Shown here one piece after another: positions 10,172 to 45,793 of a DNA stretch of 57,214 nt (position 1 is its first letter; every line of letters begins with the position of its first letter). The stretch is from contig LCGB01000001.1 in the NCBI GenBank assembly GCA_000999465.1, positions 1-57,214 on the forward strand, written 5' to 3'. Under the pieces are notes generated by a model. That model was not told the origin of the DNA and ran no database searches. It saw only the letters and a program-made list of their open reading frames with translations. The position numbers and the translations under genes were made by a program. The stretch is from Candidatus Nomurabacteria bacterium GW2011_GWB1_43_19 (lineage in GTDB: Bacteria > Patescibacteriota > Minisyncoccia > Phycocordibacterales > UBA9973).

Positions 10172-10218
10172 GGCAAAAAAAATCTGCCTTGGAAAAAAAT
10201 TGAAAAGATGAAATAAAT
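10172..10218 (+). repeat. Duplicated metK 3' end (direct repeat of 9447-9493)
   Basis: 42/47 nt identical to the metK terminus. It would encode GKKNLPWKKIEKMK* versus the genuine GKKNLPWEKIEKVK*. Confidence 0.8.
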
Positions 10219-10279
10219 AGTAAATTACGTAATCGATTACATAATTTACTACGTAATGTTATTAGCCTAGAACCAAAAA

Positions 10280-11167
10280 TTATTGCTTCGTCTGGCTGGA
10301 AGCCAGACGAAGCATAATTTCACGCGCAACTTTTTCAGTATTGGCAATAATAACGGACTCTTCATCGGCAAAAATATACATCATTACTATTTTATTGCTT
10401 CCCGGATTCGGATTTTCGGACGATACCTCCTCTAATCTGTAAAGAATGCGCGCATTCTTATTGCCCACAATACCATCATCAAAATTTCTGGCAAGAAGAT
10501 AACTCGTCTCCGGAGAAATGATCACTCCGAAAAATCCGTGCAAGTCGGAAAACATTTTATTCTCCCAGGCGCGCAAACTTTCAAAAATATCGGCGGTGGA
10601 GCGCGTTTTTATCAGGATAAAAAAATCTTTCGTTTCATTGTTCATGACACCCAGAAGAAAGTTGTCGCTAACAAGCAATATATTGTTGCGCGGAGTGAAA
10701 TTGCCCTTAATAAAGGAGATAAATTTCCTTAATCCGATGATTTGTTTATTTTCAGTAAGATAAATTCCTTCAATACCCCCACTTTTTACCTTAGTGGTAT
10801 TAACTTCATTCAAAACAATTTGCGCTATTTCATCTTTATTAAGCCCTGAGATTTCAAGATATATGGACTGGTCGTTGAAAATAAGAGGGACAAATTGTTT
10901 TTCCACTTCCACCGTATTGATATCTTTCTTAAAGAGAAAAAAAGACAAAATCGCTAAAGCCAACACAAAAAGCGCGATGCCGGTCCACATAAAAATTTTA
11001 TTTTTCATTATCTCGGGAGGCAAACTTCTTTTCCGTATTTCGTATTCTTCCTCCTCATGGATTATTTTTTTTACCAGACCTTCTTCCGTGCCGCTATTAA
11101 TAACTTTCGCTATGTCGCTGGCATAAGTTTCAATAGCTTCATCTTTTGTTTTTTTCTCCGGTTCCAT
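10280..11167 (-). CDS. Membrane-anchored hypothetical protein (single TM), co-transcribed downstream of pnp
   Basis: 295 aa with one hydrophobic helix (IFMWTGIALFVLALAILSFFLF). It starts 5 nt after the pnp stop. Confidence 0.6.
   Translation of the reverse strand: MEPEKKTKDEAIETYASDIAKVINSGTEEGLVKKIIHEEEEYEIRKRSLPPEIMKNKIFMWTGIALFVLALAILSFFLFKKDINTVEVEKQFVPLIFNDQSIYLEISGLNKDEIAQIVLNEVNTTKVKSGGIEGIYLTENKQIIGLRKFISFIKGNFTPRNNILLVSDNFLLGVMNNETKDFFILIKTRSTADIFESLRAWENKMFSDLHGFFGVIISPETSYLLARNFDDGIVGNKNARILYRLEEVSSENPNPGSNKIVMMYIFADEESVIIANTEKVAREIMLRLASSQTKQ
10284..10314 (-). terminator. Perfect 14-bp-stem hairpin overlapping the last 11 codons of the 10280-11167 gene
   Basis: TGCTTCGTCTGGCT-GGA-AGCCAGACGAAGCA. 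On the minus strand it is followed by ATAATTTTTGG, and it encodes MLRLASSQTKQ*. Confidence 0.5.
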
Positions 11168-11172
11168 TATTT

Positions 11173-13368
11173 TTAATTATTTCCGCCCGAGGCGGATCCG
11201 CCTTTGGCGGAGAAGAAATTTTTATCCGCTTCTTTGATGGACAGGCCGATTCTGCCTCTTTCCAGGTCAATATTTATAATCTTCACCGGCACAATCATGC
11301 CTTCTTTTATTATACTGCCAACATTCTCCACGCGCCATGGCGCTATTTCGGAAATATGCACCATGCCATCGATGAAATCGTTTAACCGCACAAAGGCTCC
11401 GAAGTCGGCGACTTTCACGACTTCACCCTTGAGCATTTCACCTACCTGAAATTCGCGGGTCATTTCTTCCACGATTGCCTTGGCTTTCGCGGCCGAATCG
11501 TCCCGGCCAGTCAGATAAACAGTGCCGTCGTCCTCAATGGTTATTTCCGCTCCCGTCCTTTCCTTTATATCTTTGATAGTTTTTCCTCCCCCGCCGATGA
11601 CCAGTCCGATTTTATCCGGATTGATTTTGATTATCAAAATTTTCGGAGCATTGGGGGAAATATTCGCCCGCGGTTTCGGAATTTCTTTTTCAATCCTATC
11701 TAAAATGGCCAGCCGCGCGGATTTCCCCTGTTTCATCGCCTCGCCCAGTATTTTTATCGGCACGCCCTCCACCTTCACATCAAGCTGGATGGCGGTAACG
11801 CCGTTCCGGGTGCCGGCAATTTTGAAATCCATATCACCATAATGATCTTCCGGTCCCTGAATGTCGGTCAAAATTTTATATCTGTCATCGGACTCGTACA
11901 TTAGACCCATGGCAATGCCGGCCACCGGCGCCTTAATAGGCACACCGCCGTCCATCAGAGCCAGAGTAGAAGCGCAGATTGATGCTTGAGAAGTGGAACC
12001 GTTGGAAGCCATTGACTCGGAAACAATCCGGATGGTGTACGGAAATTCCATCGCCGTTGGCAGCACCATCTCCAGTGCTTTTTCGGCGAGGGCTCCGTGT
12101 CCGACTTCCCGGCGGTTAGTAAATCCGGCCCGGCCCACTTCTCCGGACGAGTAAGGGGGGAAGTTGTAATGATGCATGAATCTTTTTTCTTCTTTGAGCT
12201 GCAACCCGTCAACCAAATTCCTGTCTTCCGGTCCGCCCAAGGTCAAAACCGAGAGGACATGCGTCCCTCCGCGGTAGAAAATTCCCGAACCGTGGAGAAT
12301 GCTGGAGAGTTCCCCGGCTTGCGCGTAGAGGTCGCGAAGTTCATCCATCTTCCGGCCGTCGGCGCGCTTGTTTTGCTCTATCGCGCTCTTATGCAGAATA
12401 TCGTTTTCCGTATCGTCAAACAAATCGTCTTCCAGGGCAAAGTCCTCTCGGTCCGGGAATTTTTCGCTGTAGTATTCTCTTGCCAAATTGTTCCAAGTAG
12501 TATGTAAGGCATCTATTTTTTCTTTGCCCGCCTCTGCGTGGCCGAAGCCCGCTTCGGCGAGGCGAAGGCCCGCTTCTCCGAAAAGCGCTTCTTCTATGTG
12601 AGGCAGGATGTTTTCGTTAAATAAAATGACAGATTCGGGAGAAATCGTTTCTTTTTCTATTGCTCTTTTCTCTTTCCCTATTTCAGCCATTATTTTCTTC
12701 TGAAAATCCTCCAGTTTGGCTATTTCCCGGCTGGCTTCTTCCAGCGCCGCTTCCAGTTCCGCCTCGGCGATTTGGTGAGCGGACGCCTCAATCATATTTA
12801 TCTTGCCGTCTTTGCCGCAGACCGTCAGGTCAAATTTATAGGGCGCATCGTCTTCCAGGCGCAAGGACTGTGGAGGGTTGATTTGGAGTCCATTGCCGTC
12901 ATACTTGCCGATACGCACGCAGCCGATGGGGCCATTCCAAGGAATATTAGAAACGGAAAGCGCCAAGGATGCGGCGTTTACCGCTAAAATTGTCGGGTCG
13001 TTATCGTCAACGGAAAGAACCGTCACAATTACCTGTACCGCGTGACGAACCGACTGATCAAAAAGCGGGCGCAGGGTACGGTCTATCACCCGGCTGGCCA
13101 AGATGGCCTCCTCCGACGGCTTGCCTTCTCGGCGGACAAAACGGGAGCCGAGAATTTTTCCGGCCGCGTAAAACTTTTCCGTATAATCAACCGTCAGATT
13201 GAAGTATCCTAAACCCTGCTGTTTATCCTTGGACATGCAGGCGGTGGCCAAGACAATCGTCTCTCCGCATTTCAGGATTACCGAACCATGCGCCTGTTCC
13301 GCTAAGTCGCTAAAAACGGCCGTTAAAGTTTTGCCTCCGATTTCCACGCTATACTCTTTTTTCTTCAT
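11173..13368 (-). CDS. pnp: Polyribonucleotide nucleotidyltransferase (PNPase)
   Basis: Two RNase PH domains, KH (GGGGKTIKDI) and S1 (GEVVKVADFGAFVRL). I prefer ATG at 13368 (MKKKEYSVEIGG) to the TTG at 13389. Confidence 0.9.
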   Translation of the reverse strand: MKKKEYSVEIGGKTLTAVFSDLAEQAHGSVILKCGETIVLATACMSKDKQQGLGYFNLTVDYTEKFYAAGKILGSRFVRREGKPSEEAILASRVIDRTLRPLFDQSVRHAVQVIVTVLSVDDNDPTILAVNAASLALSVSNIPWNGPIGCVRIGKYDGNGLQINPPQSLRLEDDAPYKFDLTVCGKDGKINMIEASAHQIAEAELEAALEEASREIAKLEDFQKKIMAEIGKEKRAIEKETISPESVILFNENILPHIEEALFGEAGLRLAEAGFGHAEAGKEKIDALHTTWNNLAREYYSEKFPDREDFALEDDLFDDTENDILHKSAIEQNKRADGRKMDELRDLYAQAGELSSILHGSGIFYRGGTHVLSVLTLGGPEDRNLVDGLQLKEEKRFMHHYNFPPYSSGEVGRAGFTNRREVGHGALAEKALEMVLPTAMEFPYTIRIVSESMASNGSTSQASICASTLALMDGGVPIKAPVAGIAMGLMYESDDRYKILTDIQGPEDHYGDMDFKIAGTRNGVTAIQLDVKVEGVPIKILGEAMKQGKSARLAILDRIEKEIPKPRANISPNAPKILIIKINPDKIGLVIGGGGKTIKDIKERTGAEITIEDDGTVYLTGRDDSAAKAKAIVEEMTREFQVGEMLKGEVVKVADFGAFVRLNDFIDGMVHISEIAPWRVENVGSIIKEGMIVPVKIINIDLERGRIGLSIKEADKNFFSAKGGSASGGNN
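11183..11210. repeat. GGATCC-centred double-hairpin element, copy at the pnp C-terminus
   Basis: CCGCCCGAGGCGGATCCGCCTTTGGCGG, the exact reverse complement of 31497-31524. It encodes the terminal SAKGGSASGGNN* of PNPase. Confidence 0.85.
12541..12576. repeat. Intragenic tandem hairpins in pnp (GAAGC-CC-GCTTC units)
   Basis: GCCGAAGCCCGCTTCGGC followed by GAAGGCCCGCTTC. They encode LRLAEAGFGHAEAG in the variable inter-domain helix region. Confidence 0.45.
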
Positions 13369-15551: not shown

Positions 15552-15815
15552 TCAGGCGAGATCCATTTTCTTCATCAGCGCGGCGTAGCGAGGTTTGCTT
15601 TTGCGTTCCAAATATTTTAAATGAGTTCGCCTGTCAGCCACCATTTTGATAAGCCCGCGACGGGAATGGTTGTCTTTCTTGTGCTTTTTTAAATGCTTGG
15701 CCAAAGCGTCAATCTGTGTAGATAAAACGGCCACCTGCACTTCCGGAGAACCCGTATCCGTTTCATGAATCCGGTTTTTCTTAATAACTGCTTGCTTTTT
15801 CTTAGTCGCCAACAT
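15552..15815 (-). CDS. rpsO: 30S ribosomal protein S15
   Basis: 87 aa with HETDTGSPEVQVAVLSTQIDALAKHLKKHKKDNHSRRGL, the canonical S15 sequence. Confidence 0.95.
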   Translation of the reverse strand: MLATKKKQAVIKKNRIHETDTGSPEVQVAVLSTQIDALAKHLKKHKKDNHSRRGLIKMVADRRTHLKYLERKSKPRYAALMKKMDLA

Positions 15816-15849
15816 GTCCGTTATAGTAGCATAAAACCCTTAAAAATGC

Positions 15850-15887
15850 AACCCCGAACCAAAGCGGAGCTTGGTATGGGGCAGGCC
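15850..15887. repeat. 38-nt hairpin repeat, copy A (rpsO/xerC divergent spacer)
   Basis: AACCCCGAACCAAAGCGGAGCTTGGTATGGGGCAGGCC, 33/38 identical to 54338-54375. The differences preserve base pairing. Confidence 0.7.
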
Positions 15888-15941
15888 CCTAAATATTTGG
15901 CGACCCGCCAAAGGACGGGCAGGCGTGGTAAAATCATAAGT

Positions 15942-16928
15942 ATGGCATCGCTCAAACAACTAAAAACCCAGTTTCTGGAATACATTGAGATAGAAAAAGG
16001 GCGCGCTATCAGAACCGTAGAAAATTACGACCACTACTTGACCGTATTTATTGAGCAGACAAAGATTAGCGACCCGAAAGACATTACCGATGTAAAAGTG
16101 CGGGATTTTCGCATTTGGCTCAACCGCCAGACGACCGGCAACAATCGCGCGACGGGAGACACAATAAAAAAGAAAACGCAGAATTATTACCTGATTGCGC
16201 TCAGAAGTTTTCTCAAATTCCTGGCCAAGAGGAATATCGCTTCCCTGCCGGCCGACCACATAGAACTCGCCAAGGTCGGCGAAAGACAGATTGACGTCAT
16301 ATCGCAAGAAGAATTGAAACGGCTCTTGGACGCCCCGAACAAAGAAAAAAATCCGGAAAAAAAATTTCGCGACAAGGCGATACTGGAAATGCTTTTTTCC
16401 ACCGGCCTGCGCGTCTCCGAGCTTTGTTCGCTCAAAAATGACTTGGACTTGCGCCTGGACGAATTTTCCATTCGCGGAAAAGGCGGGAAGGTTCGCGTGG
16501 TTTTCCTGTCCGGCGAGGCAAAAAAGGCGGTGAAGGACTACCTGGCTTTGAGAAAAGATATGTCCGAAGCACTTTTTGTGGAAGTCGGCCAGGACTCTTC
16601 CCAAAAGTCGGACTTAGGGGCAACAAAAAAACAACAAAAATCCCTAAGTCCGACTTTGGGGAACGGCTTCAAGAAAGCCCTCACTCGCCGTTCAATTGAA
16701 AGAATTGTAAAAAGATACGCTACTATCGCCGGCATATCCAAAAAAGTAACTCCGCATGTTATCCGTCATGTTTTTGCCACCGACTTGCTTTCCAACGGCG
16801 CCGATATCCGTTCCGTCCAAGCAATGCTCGGCCACGCCAACATTGGCACCACCCAGATTTACACCCATGTGACCGATAAACACTTGCGAGATATTCATAA
16901 AAAATTTCATAACAAAAAAATAACATGA
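15942..16928 (+). CDS. xerC: Tyrosine recombinase XerC/XerD family
   Basis: Internal ATG at 15942 (MASLKQLKTQFLEY). It has an N-terminal SAM-like domain and a C-terminal catalytic region HVIRHVFAT...LGHANIGTTQIYTHV. Confidence 0.85.
   Translation: MASLKQLKTQFLEYIEIEKGRAIRTVENYDHYLTVFIEQTKISDPKDITDVKVRDFRIWLNRQTTGNNRATGDTIKKKTQNYYLIALRSFLKFLAKRNIASLPADHIELAKVGERQIDVISQEELKRLLDAPNKEKNPEKKFRDKAILEMLFSTGLRVSELCSLKNDLDLRLDEFSIRGKGGKVRVVFLSGEAKKAVKDYLALRKDMSEALFVEVGQDSSQKSDLGATKKQQKSLSPTLGNGFKKALTRRSIERIVKRYATIAGISKKVTPHVIRHVFATDLLSNGADIRSVQAMLGHANIGTTQIYTHVTDKHLRDIHKKFHNKKIT
16600..16661. repeat. GTCGGACTT-GGGG palindromic element inside xerC
   Basis: CCCAAAAGTCGGACTTAGGGG - 21-nt A-rich loop - CCCTAAGTCCGACTTTGGGG. 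It encodes SQKSDLGATKKQQKSLSPTLGN and is related to 45542-45584. Confidence 0.8.
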
Positions 16929-20619: not shown

Positions 20620-22230
20620 TCATGTACTATTTTTTCTTACTCCGTGTTTAGTATGCAACTTCTCAATCTCTTGCTCTTCTAAACTTTCTTTTTTCTCTTT
20701 TCCGCGCTCGCCCAGGGTCCGGAGCTCCGCATCGCCCAGCACATTGAGCGATTTCGTCAGTTCCGAGAGATGCTCTACTGTATTTTTCTCCGGAGCGTCC
20801 AGGATTTCTTCCAAAAGCGCGTGCAAAATCCATCCCATCCTCGGTCCCGGCTTAATCTCTAGTTCTTTTATCATAAATTCTCCGTCAATTTTCAGTTGGC
20901 CGACGGAAATCGGGTCCCGCAAGGCCTCTTCAATCATCGCGAAATACTTGCGCAGGCGGTAGGGCACTTCTTTTTTCTTCATTCCCACCCGATCACATTC
21001 ACGGACATTCATTAAGAGCCAGATATTCTCCACACTGACTTTAGTGATGATCCTCCGCACGGCCGAGAGCGTAATTAACTCCGTGTCGGAGAAGAACATA
21101 TGGTTACGGACAAGCTTTTCCACCAGTTCGGTCTCCTTTTTCGAGAACCGGAGCCGTTCCATTATTTTTTTCGCCATCCGCGCGCCGATAACCTCGTGGC
21201 CGTAGAATGTGTATTTCTTTTTTGAATTTATTTTCGGAGCCGGATGTGCAAAATCGAGTCCGTGTCGGAGCCCGCTTGCGGGTAAAGCGGCGAGATTTTG
21301 CATATCCGACGAAGAATTAGCATTTCTTCTACTTCTCGGCTTCCCGATATCGTGAAAAAGCGCCGATAACCTTATTTCTAAAGGCCATTTCTTGTCCGCC
21401 GCATGCTGGACGGCATGGAGTAAATGCTCCCAAACGTCATAGATATGCTCCCCCAGTTGTTCGCAACCCACCCCTTCCAGAAGCTCCGGAATGGTATTTT
21501 TCAGCAAGCCGAGCTTCTGCAACATAACAATTCCGCTGGCTGGATTGTCCGACATGATTATTTTTACAAACTCGTCCCGAATCCGCTCAAAGGATATTTT
21601 TTGGAGCAAGTCGGCATTTTTTAAAATACTTTCGGTTGTTTCATACGACACAGAAAAGTTAAGTTGGCAAGCCAAACGGACAGCCCGCAGCATGCGGAGC
21701 GCATCCTCGGTAAACCGGTCATCCGGATTGCCTACTGCTTTTAACGTTTTATCTTGGATGTCCTTTATGCCCCCGAAAAGGTCAACTATCTGTCCTTTTC
21801 CGCCTGAGGTGGATCCGCCTTTGGCGGAAGAGTTCAATGCGAGGGCATTAATAGTGAAATCACGTCTTTTAAGGTCGTCTTCCAGCTTGTCGCTGAACTT
21901 TACCTCATCCGGATGTCTAAAATCGCTATATTTTGCCTCAATTCTATAGGGGGTAACCTCAACGACTCTTAATGTTTCTTGTGAAACATCTTCCTGAATA
22001 ACAGCGACTGTTCCAAAGGCATTCTCATATACTGTCTTTTTAAACAGGGAGATAATTTCCTCCGGTTTGGCATTGGTTGCGACATCCCAGTCCTTAGGTT
22101 CTGTTCCCATTACAAGGTCGCGGACGCATCCGCCGACCAGATATGCCTCAAAACCCGCTTTTTCAAGTGTGTCTGTTACATGTGAAACTTCTTTGGGTAT
22201 TTTTTTTATTAAACTGTTGATGTTTTCCAT
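20620..22230 (-). CDS. cca: CCA-adding enzyme / poly(A) polymerase family with HD domain
   Basis: 536 aa with the nucleotidyltransferase motif LVGGCVRD...DWD, RRDFTINA and HD-domain LFHDIGKP. It carries two palindromic insertions. Confidence 0.85.
   Translation of the reverse strand: MENINSLIKKIPKEVSHVTDTLEKAGFEAYLVGGCVRDLVMGTEPKDWDVATNAKPEEIISLFKKTVYENAFGTVAVIQEDVSQETLRVVEVTPYRIEAKYSDFRHPDEVKFSDKLEDDLKRRDFTINALALNSSAKGGSTSGGKGQIVDLFGGIKDIQDKTLKAVGNPDDRFTEDALRMLRAVRLACQLNFSVSYETTESILKNADLLQKISFERIRDEFVKIIMSDNPASGIVMLQKLGLLKNTIPELLEGVGCEQLGEHIYDVWEHLLHAVQHAADKKWPLEIRLSALFHDIGKPRSRRNANSSSDMQNLAALPASGLRHGLDFAHPAPKINSKKKYTFYGHEVIGARMAKKIMERLRFSKKETELVEKLVRNHMFFSDTELITLSAVRRIITKVSVENIWLLMNVRECDRVGMKKKEVPYRLRKYFAMIEEALRDPISVGQLKIDGEFMIKELEIKPGPRMGWILHALLEEILDAPEKNTVEHLSELTKSLNVLGDAELRTLGERGKEKKESLEEQEIEKLHTKHGVRKNST
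21241..21308. repeat. 68-nt imperfect palindrome inside the cca HD domain
   Basis: CGGATGTGCAAAATC...(inner CCGCTT-GCGGGTA-AAGCGG)...GATTTTGCATATCCG. It encodes an extra segment between HDIGKP and FYGHE. Confidence 0.65.
21800..21827. repeat. GGATCC-centred double-hairpin element, copy inside cca
   Basis: CCGCCTGAGGTGGATCCGCCTTTGGCGG, which in gene sense encodes SSAKGGSTSGGKG. Confidence 0.85.
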
Positions 22231-30971: not shown

Positions 30972-32059
30972 AACTCGTCGAAGATACAACTTTTGGAGGG
31001 GGTTTGCCGAGCGACGGCGAGGCAACTTCAGGATTTTTTAATCTTCAAAAAATCCGTACCCAGAAAAAGTTTGTACCGAGAAAGAGTTTAGGGCAAAATT
31101 TTTTAAAATCGGAACCGGCTTTAAAAAAAATTATTGAGGCGGGAGAAGTAAAAAAGGACGATATAATTTTGGAAATCGGACCGGGCAGGGGCAAGCTGAC
31201 GGAAAAACTTTTGGAGCGCGCCGGGCTCGTCATCGCCGTGGAAAAAGACCGCGAACTTTTTGAGTTTTTGAAAACAAAGTTTGAGAAAGAAATAGAAACA
31301 AATGCTTTTGTGTTAATTCATGGGGACGTATTGAATTTTGATGTTCGCGAAACAATTCTCAAATTTTTCTCAGGTCCTCGGATTTCCGGGTCCCTATCCC
31401 GGCCAGACCATTCGAAAAATTTAGAATTGCTTCGCTATAAAATCATCGCCAACATTCCTTACAACATTACCGGAGCGATACTTAGAAAGTTTTTGTCCGC
31501 CAAAGGCGGATCCGCCTCGGGCGGAAAAAAATTTCTGACCGCCCGGAACCAGCCGGAGCGGATGGTGTTGATGGTCCAGAAAGAGGTGGCTGAAAGAATT
31601 CTTGGCAGGAGAGAAAATATTTCATACTCAAAACCTAGCCATGGCAGAAAATTGGGTAAGGAAAGTATATTATCTATTTCCGTCAAGGCCTACGGGGAGC
31701 CCAAAATGATAATGAAAGTGCCGGCGCGATATTTCTCCCCGACGCCGCAAGTAGACTCGGCGGTGATTTTGATAAAAAATATTTCTAGGAAAAATTTTGA
31801 AATCCCAGCCCAGCCCTCCCCAAAGGAGAGGGAGAGATTTGGAGCCTCCCCTTTTGGGGGAGGTATGGAGGGGGTAAATGAAGAAAGATTCTGGAAAATA
31901 GTAAAAGCGGGCTTTGCGCACAAGAGAAAAAAACTCTCCGGCAACCTGAAAAACCTTGTTTCTTTGGAAAAAACGAACTTGGCGGTTTTTAAAGACAAAA
32001 GGGCGGAGGATTTATCCCTTACGGACTGGATTTTACTGGCCCGCACACCTAATTTATAA
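30968..32059 (+). CDS. rsmA: 16S rRNA (adenine1518/1519-N6)-dimethyltransferase RsmA/KsgA, expanded by repeat insertions
   Basis: SLGQNFL, LEIGPGRGKLT, IIANIPYNITG and a C-terminal helical domain. It is 363 aa (family members I recall are ~260-290 aa). ATGA overlaps the pcrA stop. Confidence 0.85.
   Translation: MKLVEDTTFGGGLPSDGEATSGFFNLQKIRTQKKFVPRKSLGQNFLKSEPALKKIIEAGEVKKDDIILEIGPGRGKLTEKLLERAGLVIAVEKDRELFEFLKTKFEKEIETNAFVLIHGDVLNFDVRETILKFFSGPRISGSLSRPDHSKNLELLRYKIIANIPYNITGAILRKFLSAKGGSASGGKKFLTARNQPERMVLMVQKEVAERILGRRENISYSKPSHGRKLGKESILSISVKAYGEPKMIMKVPARYFSPTPQVDSAVILIKNISRKNFEIPAQPSPKERERFGASPFGGGMEGVNEERFWKIVKAGFAHKRKKLSGNLKNLVSLEKTNLAVFKDKRAEDLSLTDWILLARTPNL
30990..31069. repeat. 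80-nt two-hairpin module, copy B (inside the rsmA 5' coding region)
   Basis: 67/80 identical to 1865-1944. The hairpin GGATTTTTT-7nt-AAAAAATCC is conserved, and the first hairpin differs by paired substitutions. Confidence 0.75.
31497..31524. repeat. GGATCC-centred double-hairpin element, copy inside rsmA
   Basis: CCGCCAAAGGCGGATCCGCCTCGGGCGG encodes SAKGGSASGGKK. It is 28/28 identical to the pnp copy in gene sense. Confidence 0.85.
31814..31863. repeat. CCCTC/GAGGG + CCTCCCC/GGGGAGG double hairpin inside rsmA
   Basis: CCCTCCCCAAAGGAGAGGG then CCTCCCC-TTTT-GGGGGAGG. It encodes PSPKERERFGASPFGGGMEG. Confidence 0.65.
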
Positions 32060-45286: not shown

Positions 45287-45793
45287 TCAGATTGTTCCCA
45301 CGTATTTAATCACCACCCGGCGAGCATATCCCGTGCCTACTGACTCGGTCTTTAGGTCAATTGCGTCGGATAAAAATTCGTGGATAATCCTGCGTTCAAA
45401 AGCCGACATCGGGTCAACTTCTATGTTGGATTTGAAATATCTCGCCCTTTCCGACATCATGTGAGCCACTGCGCGGATGTTTTCTATGTGTTTCTTTTGA
45501 AAGCCGTTTATGTCAATGAGAAGGCCTAAACCTTGTTGCTGCCGCATGTCGGACCTGGGGGATTCCCCCAAGTCCGACATGCGGGGGGTTTTTGTCTCAA
45601 TAATTCTGCGAACAATGTGGTTTAAGGCTTGCAGGCCTTCGCCGTCCCGTCCCACAAAAAAATGAGGTTCGTTAACTTCCACAGAAACCCATATGTTTTG
45701 AGTTCCGTCTTCGGTAACGGAAATATCATTTAATTTTACCGTGGTTTTTTCAACCAAATCTTTTATTAAATTTTTTATTTCTTCTTTTTCCAT
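45287..45793 (-). CDS. jag: Jag/SpoIIIJ-associated RNA-binding protein (KH + R3H)
   Basis: ATG at 45793 (MEKEEIKNLIKDL), 1 nt after the yidC stop. The C-terminal ERRIIHEFL...GTGYARRVVI is an R3H motif. Confidence 0.8.
   Translation of the reverse strand: MEKEEIKNLIKDLVEKTTVKLNDISVTEDGTQNIWVSVEVNEPHFFVGRDGEGLQALNHIVRRIIETKTPRMSDLGESPRSDMRQQQGLGLLIDINGFQKKHIENIRAVAHMMSERARYFKSNIEVDPMSAFERRIIHEFLSDAIDLKTESVGTGYARRVVIKYVGTI
45542..45584. repeat. GTCGGAC-TGGGGG palindromic element inside jag
   Basis: CCGCATGTCGGACCTGGGGGA-T-TCCCCCAAGTCCGACATGCGG (20/21 arm pairing). It encodes PRMSDLGESPRSDMRQ and shares its core with the xerC element. Confidence 0.8.

Follow-up and report, generated by a model that had tools for sequence, protein, structure and literature searches.

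The locus described here raises a simple question, namely why two unrelated genes of one bacterium should each be interrupted by a similar DNA hairpin. Both lie in a stretch of 57,214 nucleotides (henceforth the window) of contig LCGB01000001.1 from Candidatus Nomurabacteria bacterium GW2011_GWB1_43_19, a member of the Patescibacteriota, and the two genes encode a Xer-type tyrosine recombinase (xer) and the RNA-binding protein Jag (jag). An earlier note, made from the sequence, had described one in-frame palindrome in each gene and had proposed that a single mobile or copy-pasted hairpin that tolerates translation had been copied into both. The answer that we favour, with moderate confidence, is that the two hairpins are copies of a short dispersed palindromic repeat of Patescibacteria, copied and pasted in the manner of repetitive extragenic palindromes (REP) or Rickettsia palindromic elements (RPE) and tolerated in permissive loops of the host proteins. 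The host genes and the parts of the two hairpins are as follows.

15942 to 16928, + strand: xer, host gene for a Xer-type tyrosine recombinase, likely start ATG at 15942; the element lies in a hypervariable loop of the catalytic domain
16598 to 16619, + strand: left arm of the xer copy, TTCCCAAAAGTCGGACTTAGGG, codons S-Q-K-S-D-L-G
16620 to 16641, + strand: spacer of the xer copy, 22 nt, A-rich, GCAACAAAAAAACAACAAAAAT, codons A-T-K-K-Q-Q-K
16642 to 16663, + strand: right arm of the xer copy, CCCTAAGTCCGACTTTGGGGAA, codons S-L-S-P-T-L-G-N
45287 to 45793, − strand: jag, host gene for a Jag/R3H RNA-binding protein, likely start ATG at 45793; the element lies in the hypervariable linker before R3H
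45564 to 45584, − strand: left arm of the jag copy in sense orientation, CCGCATGTCGGACTTGGGGGA on the − strand, codons R-M-S-D-L-G-E
45542 to 45562, − strand: right arm of the jag copy in sense orientation, TCCCCCAGGTCCGACATGCGG on the − strand, codons S-P-R-S-D-M-R

These are the top two hairpins of the window by length. The xer copy has 22-nt arms, 95% complementary, around its 22-nt A-rich spacer, and the jag copy has 21-nt arms, also 95% complementary, around a single nucleotide. The sequences that the earlier note had quoted are present where it placed them, but its description of a long perfect hairpin holds for the length and the shared core only: each stem is near-perfect, with one mismatch or wobble apiece (in jag a U.G wobble in the right arm, on the sense strand), and pairing runs further out than the quoted arms (TTCCC...GGGAA). 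Both fold far better than shuffled sequence, with z-scores of −7.5 to −10.3 as RNA and −8.6 to −9.5 as DNA, and none of 200 shuffles matches them. The core GTCGGACYTRGGG is common to the two hairpins, and its degenerate form GTCGGACYTRGGGG, allowing at most two mismatches, has six matches in the window against 0.65 expected, a count reached by none of 100 shuffles, so that the shared core also stands as claimed. The window hairpins are a real, non-chance feature. The remaining GTCGGAC sites of the window were ruled out as further copies, being isolated heptamers at chance level.

The pattern GTCGGACYTRGGG-N(1-31)-CCCYARGTCCGAC was searched in one genome per species (596 Gb in all) and found at 32 loci, against about 0.07 by chance according to our own arithmetic. 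Twenty-seven of these loci fall in 17 genomes labelled Patescibacteria or resembling them, often with two to four per genome, and make up about 20 distinct sites; no copy of the family was found in viral contigs. The repeat unit is a near-palindrome of about 19 nt, CC(C)NNN-GTC-S-GAC-NNN-GG(G), which occurs solo (e.g. loci L114 and L117) or as an inverted dimer. In the dimer the stem measures about 19 bp, with the sequence CC(C)NNN-GTCGGAC-YTRGG(G), and TTCCC/GGGAA extends it in some copies, while each arm on its own is nearly palindromic about GTC-S-GAC. The 19-mer CCATAGGTCGGACCTAGGG is nearly invariant over many sites in several Nomurabacteria-type genomes. Elements range from 19 to 66 bp, with dimer spacers of 1–23 nt overall that fall into two classes, short (1–7 nt, e.g. 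GAATTC or GATTC) and long (about 20 nt, A-rich).

Long spacers from unrelated sites align with invariant positions (consensus RCAAA...TAAAAAA...AAAGW), and the spacer of the window's xer copy is homologous to those in uvrB, uvrA, a second xer site and intercistronic sites of other genomes (invariant C21, A38 and A39). Because these spacers align, the whole element of about 60 bp is homologous across sites, and an independent origin in place is excluded. It is accordingly very improbable that there is no family at all and that each palindrome arose where it stands, by inverted duplication through template switching in a fast-evolving loop, with a core shared by coincidence or convergence. The Xer and Jag loops of other lineages do hold unrelated palindromes, and locus L113 has a small local palindrome at the xer site; against this, the core is significantly shared within the window, the 19-nt arms and the spacer of about 20 nt are homologous across about 20 unrelated sites in 17 genomes, the long-form alignment contradicts a local origin, and the similarity is genome-specific (see below). 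The proposal that the window hairpins belong to one dispersed, copy-pasted DNA repeat family is thus supported by the number of sites and genomes, the homologous spacers and the likeness within genomes.

Five loci from GC-rich genomes, four proteobacterial (L009 4633-4698, L011 1092-1158, L022 3183-3227 and L028 649-717) and one from an Ilumatobacter metagenome-assembled genome (L031 6891-6927), were set apart as a look-alike family. They are intergenic and have the same 13-nt core, GTCGGACTTRGGG, within a longer and different outer stem (CTAGSAGYCT) and with GC-rich loops.

Copies of the family proper lie both inside genes and between them (18 of 38 relaxed matches are coding). The nine intragenic sites, every one in-frame and stop-free, are the following.

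UvrB, site A: L003, L019, L024
UvrB, site B: L025
UvrA, single site: L014 (long form), L023 (short form)
Xer, site A: window, L030, L033, L059
Xer, site B: L005
PIF1-like helicase: L017
Jag: window, L004, L029
GatB: L002
CarA, C-terminus: L013

Six of these nine sites are thus in genes of DNA repair or recombination. The copies outside genes separate cistrons of housekeeping operons and are located as follows.

rplR/rplF and rpsH/rpsN: L001, intercistronic
dnaN>orf92: L006, L008, intercistronic
rpsB>tsf: L018, intercistronic
rsmH>orf111: L021, intercistronic
zwf>META: L012, intercistronic
pilB>pilC: L027, intercistronic
upstream of rpsH: L010, intercistronic or intergenic
beside nrdJ: L026, intercistronic or intergenic
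beside ftsW: L032, intercistronic or intergenic
after pbp2: L015, intercistronic or intergenic
rnpA|dnaA spacer: L020, intercistronic or intergenic

The earlier note had been struck by the fact that the left arm is read as S-D-L-G in both window genes. Both copies are indeed in-frame and stop-free with that left-arm peptide, but the shared frame is weak evidence, for it is mostly the outcome of stop-codon filtering. Among coding copies, phase 2 (x-S-D-L-G) occurs 14 times, phase 0 (V-G-L-R) three times and phase 1 once, or about 8:3:0 by our estimate once orthologous sites are collapsed by hand. In phase 1, TTAGGG or CTAGGG arms yield ACT-TAG, which is why 65 of 76 readings contain a stop codon; with only two frames usable, the agreement of two copies is therefore close to a coin toss, and we ruled it out as a sign of selection on the peptide. 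The right arm is read in different frames even within the window (SLSPTLG in xer, SPRSDMR in jag). With three frames in use, a variable frame for the right arm and copies outside genes, it is the DNA and not the peptide that is conserved. Orthologues with a homologous peptide and no palindromic DNA would have told against a DNA element, and the opposite was found, as peptides vary and the DNA palindrome is kept.

The long form has a single orientation relative to transcription: the A-rich spacer strand is the sense strand at 10 of 10 independent long-form sites (4 coding, 6 intercistronic; two-sided binomial p ~0.002). Several causes are possible, among them hydrophilic, K/Q/N-rich, stop-free coding, avoidance of terminators on the T-rich strand, strand-specific insertion and a role of the RNA. 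Terminator avoidance is a tentative explanation: a terminator-like site with a 5-bp stem was found on the antisense T-rich strand in two of three copies tested (L008 and L019) and is missing in the window copy. The element itself was ruled out as an intrinsic terminator; on the sense strand nothing terminator-like coincides with it, and copies lie inside open reading frames (ORFs).

At three intercistronic sites (dnaN>orf92, rpsB>tsf and rsmH>orf111) a start codon is buried in the right arm's CTATGG, so that the downstream ORF begins there, at ATG or, in L008, at GTG (L006 6671-6675; L008 1773-1777, −; L018 3845-3849; L021 733-737, −). A start codon within the 19-bp stem may be a device for translational coupling.

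One way to read these last features is that the palindrome is selected as a cis-element of the mRNA, a hairpin that would set the processing of the transcript (e.g. as an RNase III site) or its stability, make ribosomes pause or serve translational coupling, with the protein insert a by-product. The consistent strand at coding and intercistronic sites, the copies inside operons, the buried starts and the stability of the RNA hairpins (−34 to −43 kcal/mol) speak for it, as does the uvrB site, at which the arms are 95–100% identical among three species, the spacer 77–91% and the flanking uvrB DNA 61–82%. We nevertheless think this rather unlikely. Among 18 long-form copies, 97.9% of cells are paired, and in 8 of 19 pairs both members have changed; 500 shuffles never attained any of these values, and slid registers collapse. 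Only 2 of 339 cells hold a G.U pair, and many of the switches are double changes by transversion. Stem mismatches are likewise rare (14 of 494 positions: 4 G.U-type, 1 A.C-type and 9 other), with no clear excess of G.U on the sense strand; as a test for selection on RNA, the asymmetry of G.U and A.C mismatches had to be set aside, the mismatches being too few to decide. Covariation also occurs within a single arm, between columns 6 and 14 in 18 of 18 copies, something that one long RNA hairpin does not need. The RNA reading further has to contend with the patchy presence of the element in closely related orthologues, where some copies have decayed (L036, for one), with the other possible causes of the orientation bias, and with the lack of any Rfam match above noise: in the window only tRNAs pass the gathering score, and a sensitive scan gave sub-threshold animal miRNA models (18–25 against 70–99 bits).

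Arm pairing together with same-arm covariation means that symmetry is kept at two nested levels; L059 shows four coordinated changes. For the xer element, arms and flanks drift at about the same rate, but changes in the arms are compensated. Taken as a whole, the maintenance pattern argues for a constraint or process at the level of DNA over a typical RNA stem. Quasipalindrome correction, i.e. intrastrand template switching, is a mutational mechanism and is a candidate here: it would give the observed pattern of changes copied from arm to arm, transversion doubles, no G.U intermediates and nested symmetry without selection. It is a mechanism and not an element family, and would account for the maintenance of the palindromes but not for their dispersal.

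Nested symmetry could also suggest that a dimeric Patescibacteria protein (a factor of the nucleoid, of replication, of repair or of recombination, for example) binds the unit as double-stranded DNA, and that selection keeps it wherever it lies. Each arm is a palindrome with both symmetry levels maintained, CCATAGGTCGGACCTAGGG is nearly invariant across sites and Nomurabacteria-type genomes, and most intragenic sites are in repair or recombination genes. Still, this is highly doubtful, given that copies sit in hypervariable coding loops and between cistrons and not in promoters, that the spacing between units runs from 1 to 23 nt, that copy number is low and irregular with a patchy distribution in close relatives, and that the covarying positions are free to differ from genome to genome, a pattern more in line with structure than with recognition of particular bases. 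A dif-like core site for tyrosine recombinases was ruled out, with a spacer of 1 to 23 nt against a fixed 6–8 bp and several copies against one per replicon.

Comparison of orthologues shows what becomes of a copy once in place. At one codon position of Xer, in orthologues that are 85–100% identical, the following states were found.

Long dimer: window; L033 (GCCGGAC/GTCCGGC); L059 (GACGGTC/GACCGTC)
Medium dimer: L115 (GTTGGAC/GTCCAAC)
Solo unit: L114
Small palindromic remnant: L113
Empty: P0012

L113 was rejected as a clean empty site from which to read insertion boundaries, part of the left arm remaining there as a small palindrome, and is probably a deletion derivative. In Jag, two double changes, both fully compensated, separate the window copy from that of L116 (80% protein identity), and L117 has a solo unit. 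Both the xer and the jag copy of the window have orthologous counterparts in relatives whose proteins are about 80% identical; they are old, vertically inherited residents and not recent copies of one another. It is next to impossible that such palindromes are artefacts of assembly or amplification (chimeric fold-back reads); errors of multiple displacement amplification or assembly can yield palindromes, but these elements recur at orthologous sites in independent assemblies (NCBI, ENA, JGI, Logan), always in-frame and with evolutionary covariation.

Non-orthologous copies resemble each other more within a genome than between genomes (0.887 against 0.699 identical, permutation p < 2e-4). Even at common sites the spacer type is genome-specific: upstream of rpsH it is long in RAAC4 and short in JAHIVA, and at the uvrA site it is long in L014 and short in L023. 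This likeness and the spacer types require exchange among dispersed copies, or re-insertion.

Both host segments are hypervariable. The earlier note had placed the Xer insert in the linker before the catalytic domain, which proved wrong: the Pfam Phage_integrase match spans the insert, and the alignment with Escherichia coli XerD (1a0p) is interrupted at precisely this point, with residues 191 and 214 of XerD on either side, so that the insert occupies a loop inside the domain. For Jag, the note's placement between the KH-like fold and R3H agrees with domain matches and the structure model. The Xer insert is modelled as coil with a predicted local distance difference test score (pLDDT) of about 30, flanked by modelled elements; that of Jag is coil with pLDDT below 50, in a model that is poor overall. 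Among orthologues 68–100% identical elsewhere, the host segment varies from 9 to 38 amino acids in 115 Xer proteins and from 15 to 33 in 119 Jag proteins, and peptides derived from the family occur in 9 and 13 of them, respectively.

The Xer loop is a hairpin hotspot, with perfect stems of at least 10 bp in 4 of 43 loops against none of 496 length-matched windows of the same genes, and holds several palindrome families that, judged by eye, are unrelated. Unrelated palindromes lie in the Xer loops of other lineages (L037 10637-10720, L038 1318-1380, L039 9900-9974, L043 10628-10729, L047 694-804, L050 600-710 and L044 2486-2599); those of L047 and L050 have a common loop, GGGAATTAAAA, and differing but compensated stems. 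Between L044 and L045 or L046, whose genes are about 90% identical, the Xer loop differs by a clean 33-nt in-frame indel consisting of an unrelated GC-rich palindrome, without target-site duplication. Jag linkers of other lineages carry further peptides, HPPLDKGRVGEG in P0205, P0223 and P0228 and SPLAGGE...PLPAKGG in P0145, P0180, P0220, P0226, P0232 and P0236, which back-translate to other palindromes, e.g. CACCCTCCCCTT-GAC-AAGGGGAGGGTG, as read from the protein sequences.

The neighbourhoods of the two genes are ordinary (rpsO | xer - exonuclease III-like gene; rnpA - yidC - jag, beside dnaA and dnaN). The mechanically called xer ORF begins at 15765, ahead of the likely ATG at 15942. The intervening 59-codon N-terminal extension (15765-15941) overlaps the region of the divergent rpsO and is absent from all homologues, which begin MASLK..., i.e. 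at 15942.

Taking the dispersed repeat as the explanation, the element is copied between sites or homogenised within a genome, as the within-genome likeness indicates, probably by transposition or gene conversion. In compact genomes selection would spare only those insertions that keep the frame free of stops, fall in a permissive surface loop and have the A-rich strand of the spacer as sense strand; such copies would be transcribed and translated through, adding 7–22 disordered residues. A resident copy is inherited vertically over long periods, switching between dimer, solo, remnant and empty states while its arms stay strictly Watson-Crick complementary. Maintenance would act on the DNA, through template-switching correction of the arms, through a requirement for the hairpin by a mobilising or binding factor, or both.

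Several observations weigh against such a history. No transposase adjoins any copy, the flanking genes being housekeeping ones; the pair of copies in L001 was considered as the flanks of a transposase and ruled out, as they separate ribosomal-protein cistrons. A crude IS200 TnpA probe gave no significant tblastn match (best E 0.08) over the 1.1 Mb of loci fetched, which is a weak negative. There is neither a target-site duplication nor any direct repeat flanking the copies, and no presence/absence polymorphism of the family was found between near-identical genomes. Copy number is low, with only five canonical units in an unbiased 892 kb, three of them in the xer loop, and identity between the two copies of the window is as low as 55%. 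That the insert is translated we infer. As to the proposal of one hairpin copied into two unrelated genes, then, the single family stands, while the divergence and age of the two window copies tell against recent copying between them; as to a mobile hairpin tolerating translation, dispersal, in-frame and stop-free copies and poorly modelled loops support it, and the missing transposase, duplication and insertion polymorphism do not. Finally, the uvrB arms, more conserved than adjoining essential coding DNA, and the single orientation to transcription at all 10 long-form sites may indicate that the element acts in cis and is not a passenger. On that reading, which is unlikely but has some chance of being right, the palindromes are maintained cis-acting DNA or RNA structures of ultra-small genomes, with a fixed orientation and recurring in loops of repair and recombination genes (uvrA, uvrB, xer, pif1) and at operon junctions.

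To place the repeat family among known systems, we compared it with the main classes of short palindromic repeats. RPEs are dispersed palindromic repeats of a reduced genome. Many of them interrupt unrelated housekeeping genes, uvrB among them, without breaking the frame; their positions were judged to suit the fold of the protein, and they are read through as extra peptide (PMC10969869, PMC3733652). The Patescibacteria element is similarly dispersed and in-frame in unrelated genes (uvrA, uvrB twice, xer twice, pif1, jag, gatB and carA), at structurally permissive positions (Xer coil with pLDDT ~30 and 115 orthologues; Jag below 50 in a poor model). However, RPEs are about 100–150 bp with a conserved peptide, whereas here the element is 19–66 bp and the peptide depends on the frame (SDLG or VGLR; SLSPTLG or SPRSDMR). 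The short RPE-4 and RPE-6 types are CGTC-tagged (PMC3733652), a tag that the Patescibacteria family lacks. Another phylum, lower copy number, two nested levels of palindromy and genome-specific spacers set it further apart from RPEs by description.

A REP unit is an imperfect palindrome of 20–40 bp, single or in inverted dimers, with arms more conserved than the spacer and a GTAG or CGTC tetranucleotide at one end; in-frame copies within genes are occasional, with a notable excess in uvrA, uvrB, recB, uvrD and polA (PMC3733652). Like REP, BIME and REPIN, the present family has a near-palindromic unit (about 19 nt), solo and in inverted dimers that fold into a longer hairpin, and its spacer is less conserved than its arms. 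Unlike REP, none of 26 tabulated copies has GTAG or CGTC at its termini, the ends being CC(C)NNN / NNNGG(G); copy number is low against hundreds per genome; and about half of the sites are intragenic, against mainly extragenic ones. A REP-associated tyrosine transposase (RAYT), whose gene REPs typically flank, did not turn up with the weak IS200 TnpA probe in the fetched 1.1 Mb. Mobilisation of the HUH/Y1 type is expected to leave no target-site duplication, and in the lack of one the family is again like REP. [quoted passage not shown] MITEs differ in usually measuring 70–300 bp, with terminal inverted repeats of 15–30 bp around an unrelated interior, target-site duplications and a parent insertion sequence, while the Patescibacteria element is inverted repeat in its entirety and shows no duplication. 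The family thus resembles RPE and REP palindromes yet departs from both in defining features, and no paper in the searchable literature contains its sequence or ties REPIN/RAYT to Patescibacteria.

Other palindromes were met in the same material. A second dispersed in-frame family, presumably the one that the earlier note counted as its first, consists of tandem doublets, TCCGCC-NNN-GGCGGA-TCCGCC-NNN-GGCGGA, with 14 occurrences in 1.17 Mb fetched. In the window it lies at 11182-11211 (PNPase C-terminus, −), 31496-31525 (KsgA/RrnaAD, +) and, in part, 21814-21828 (gene for the CCA-adding enzyme), and elsewhere at L038 2369-2398, L039 17814, L100 7388 and L104 11494; its peptide in PNPase and KsgA alike is S-A-K-G-G-S-A-S-G-G. 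A nested in-frame hairpin at 21241-21308 of the window (− gene 20620-22230, PolyA_pol/HD CCA-adding enzyme) shares the inner core GTGTCGGAGCCCGCTTGCGGGTAAAGC with L080 14081-14158, while the outer stems of 15–25 bp are wholly different and each complementary. A long hairpin, ACCCCCACACCTATATTTTTAT...ATAAAAATATAGGTGTGGGGGT, with a loop of about 24 nt, recurs in three genomes (L008 4576-4647, L024 5459-5527 and L094 4333-4402) and is perhaps a structured RNA that lacks annotation, or a further repeat family. AT-rich hairpins of 22–31 bp, running from (C)CCGCACA to TGTGCGGG, form a mostly intergenic family (L093 6008-6055, L057 19416-19465, L069 4759-4852) with several members within contig L043 (14331-14389, 18197-18252, 14666-14717). 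The window also has a 34-bp AT-rich near-perfect palindrome at 10218-10251, TAGTAAATTACGTAATC|GATTACATAATTTACTA, in the spacer upstream of the − gene at 10280-11167. Its cumulative GC skew has a minimum near 20–22 kb, with dnaA/dnaN at 47.4–50.1 kb; the skew largely tracks gene orientation, so no origin was placed by it.

If the palindromes were cis-acting, they could be hairpins for translational coupling or processing, or structure-specific signals for the repair and recombination proteins whose own genes carry them, and this would account for REP and RPE inserts being over-represented in the uvr and rec genes of other phyla. Units or dimers of REP and RPE lie in-frame in uvrA, uvrB, recB and other genes there (PMC3733652, PMC10969869), and the preference of the Patescibacteria copies for DNA-repair genes independently parallels this puzzling bias. 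As a repeat family, the element extends in-frame palindromic repeats, so far represented by Rickettsia RPEs and some REPs, to the Patescibacteria or Candidate Phyla Radiation (CPR), a huge and mostly uncultured group with minimal genomes for which the searchable literature has no such report. With its nested Watson-Crick covariation and deep orthologous copies, it provides a clean natural data set on whether palindromes persist by selection or by self-correcting mutation. Hypervariable loops of CPR proteins such as Xer, Jag, UvrA and UvrB are partly built from, and repeatedly reshaped by, palindromic DNA, and this remodelling bears on CPR annotation, alignment-based phylogeny and structure prediction.

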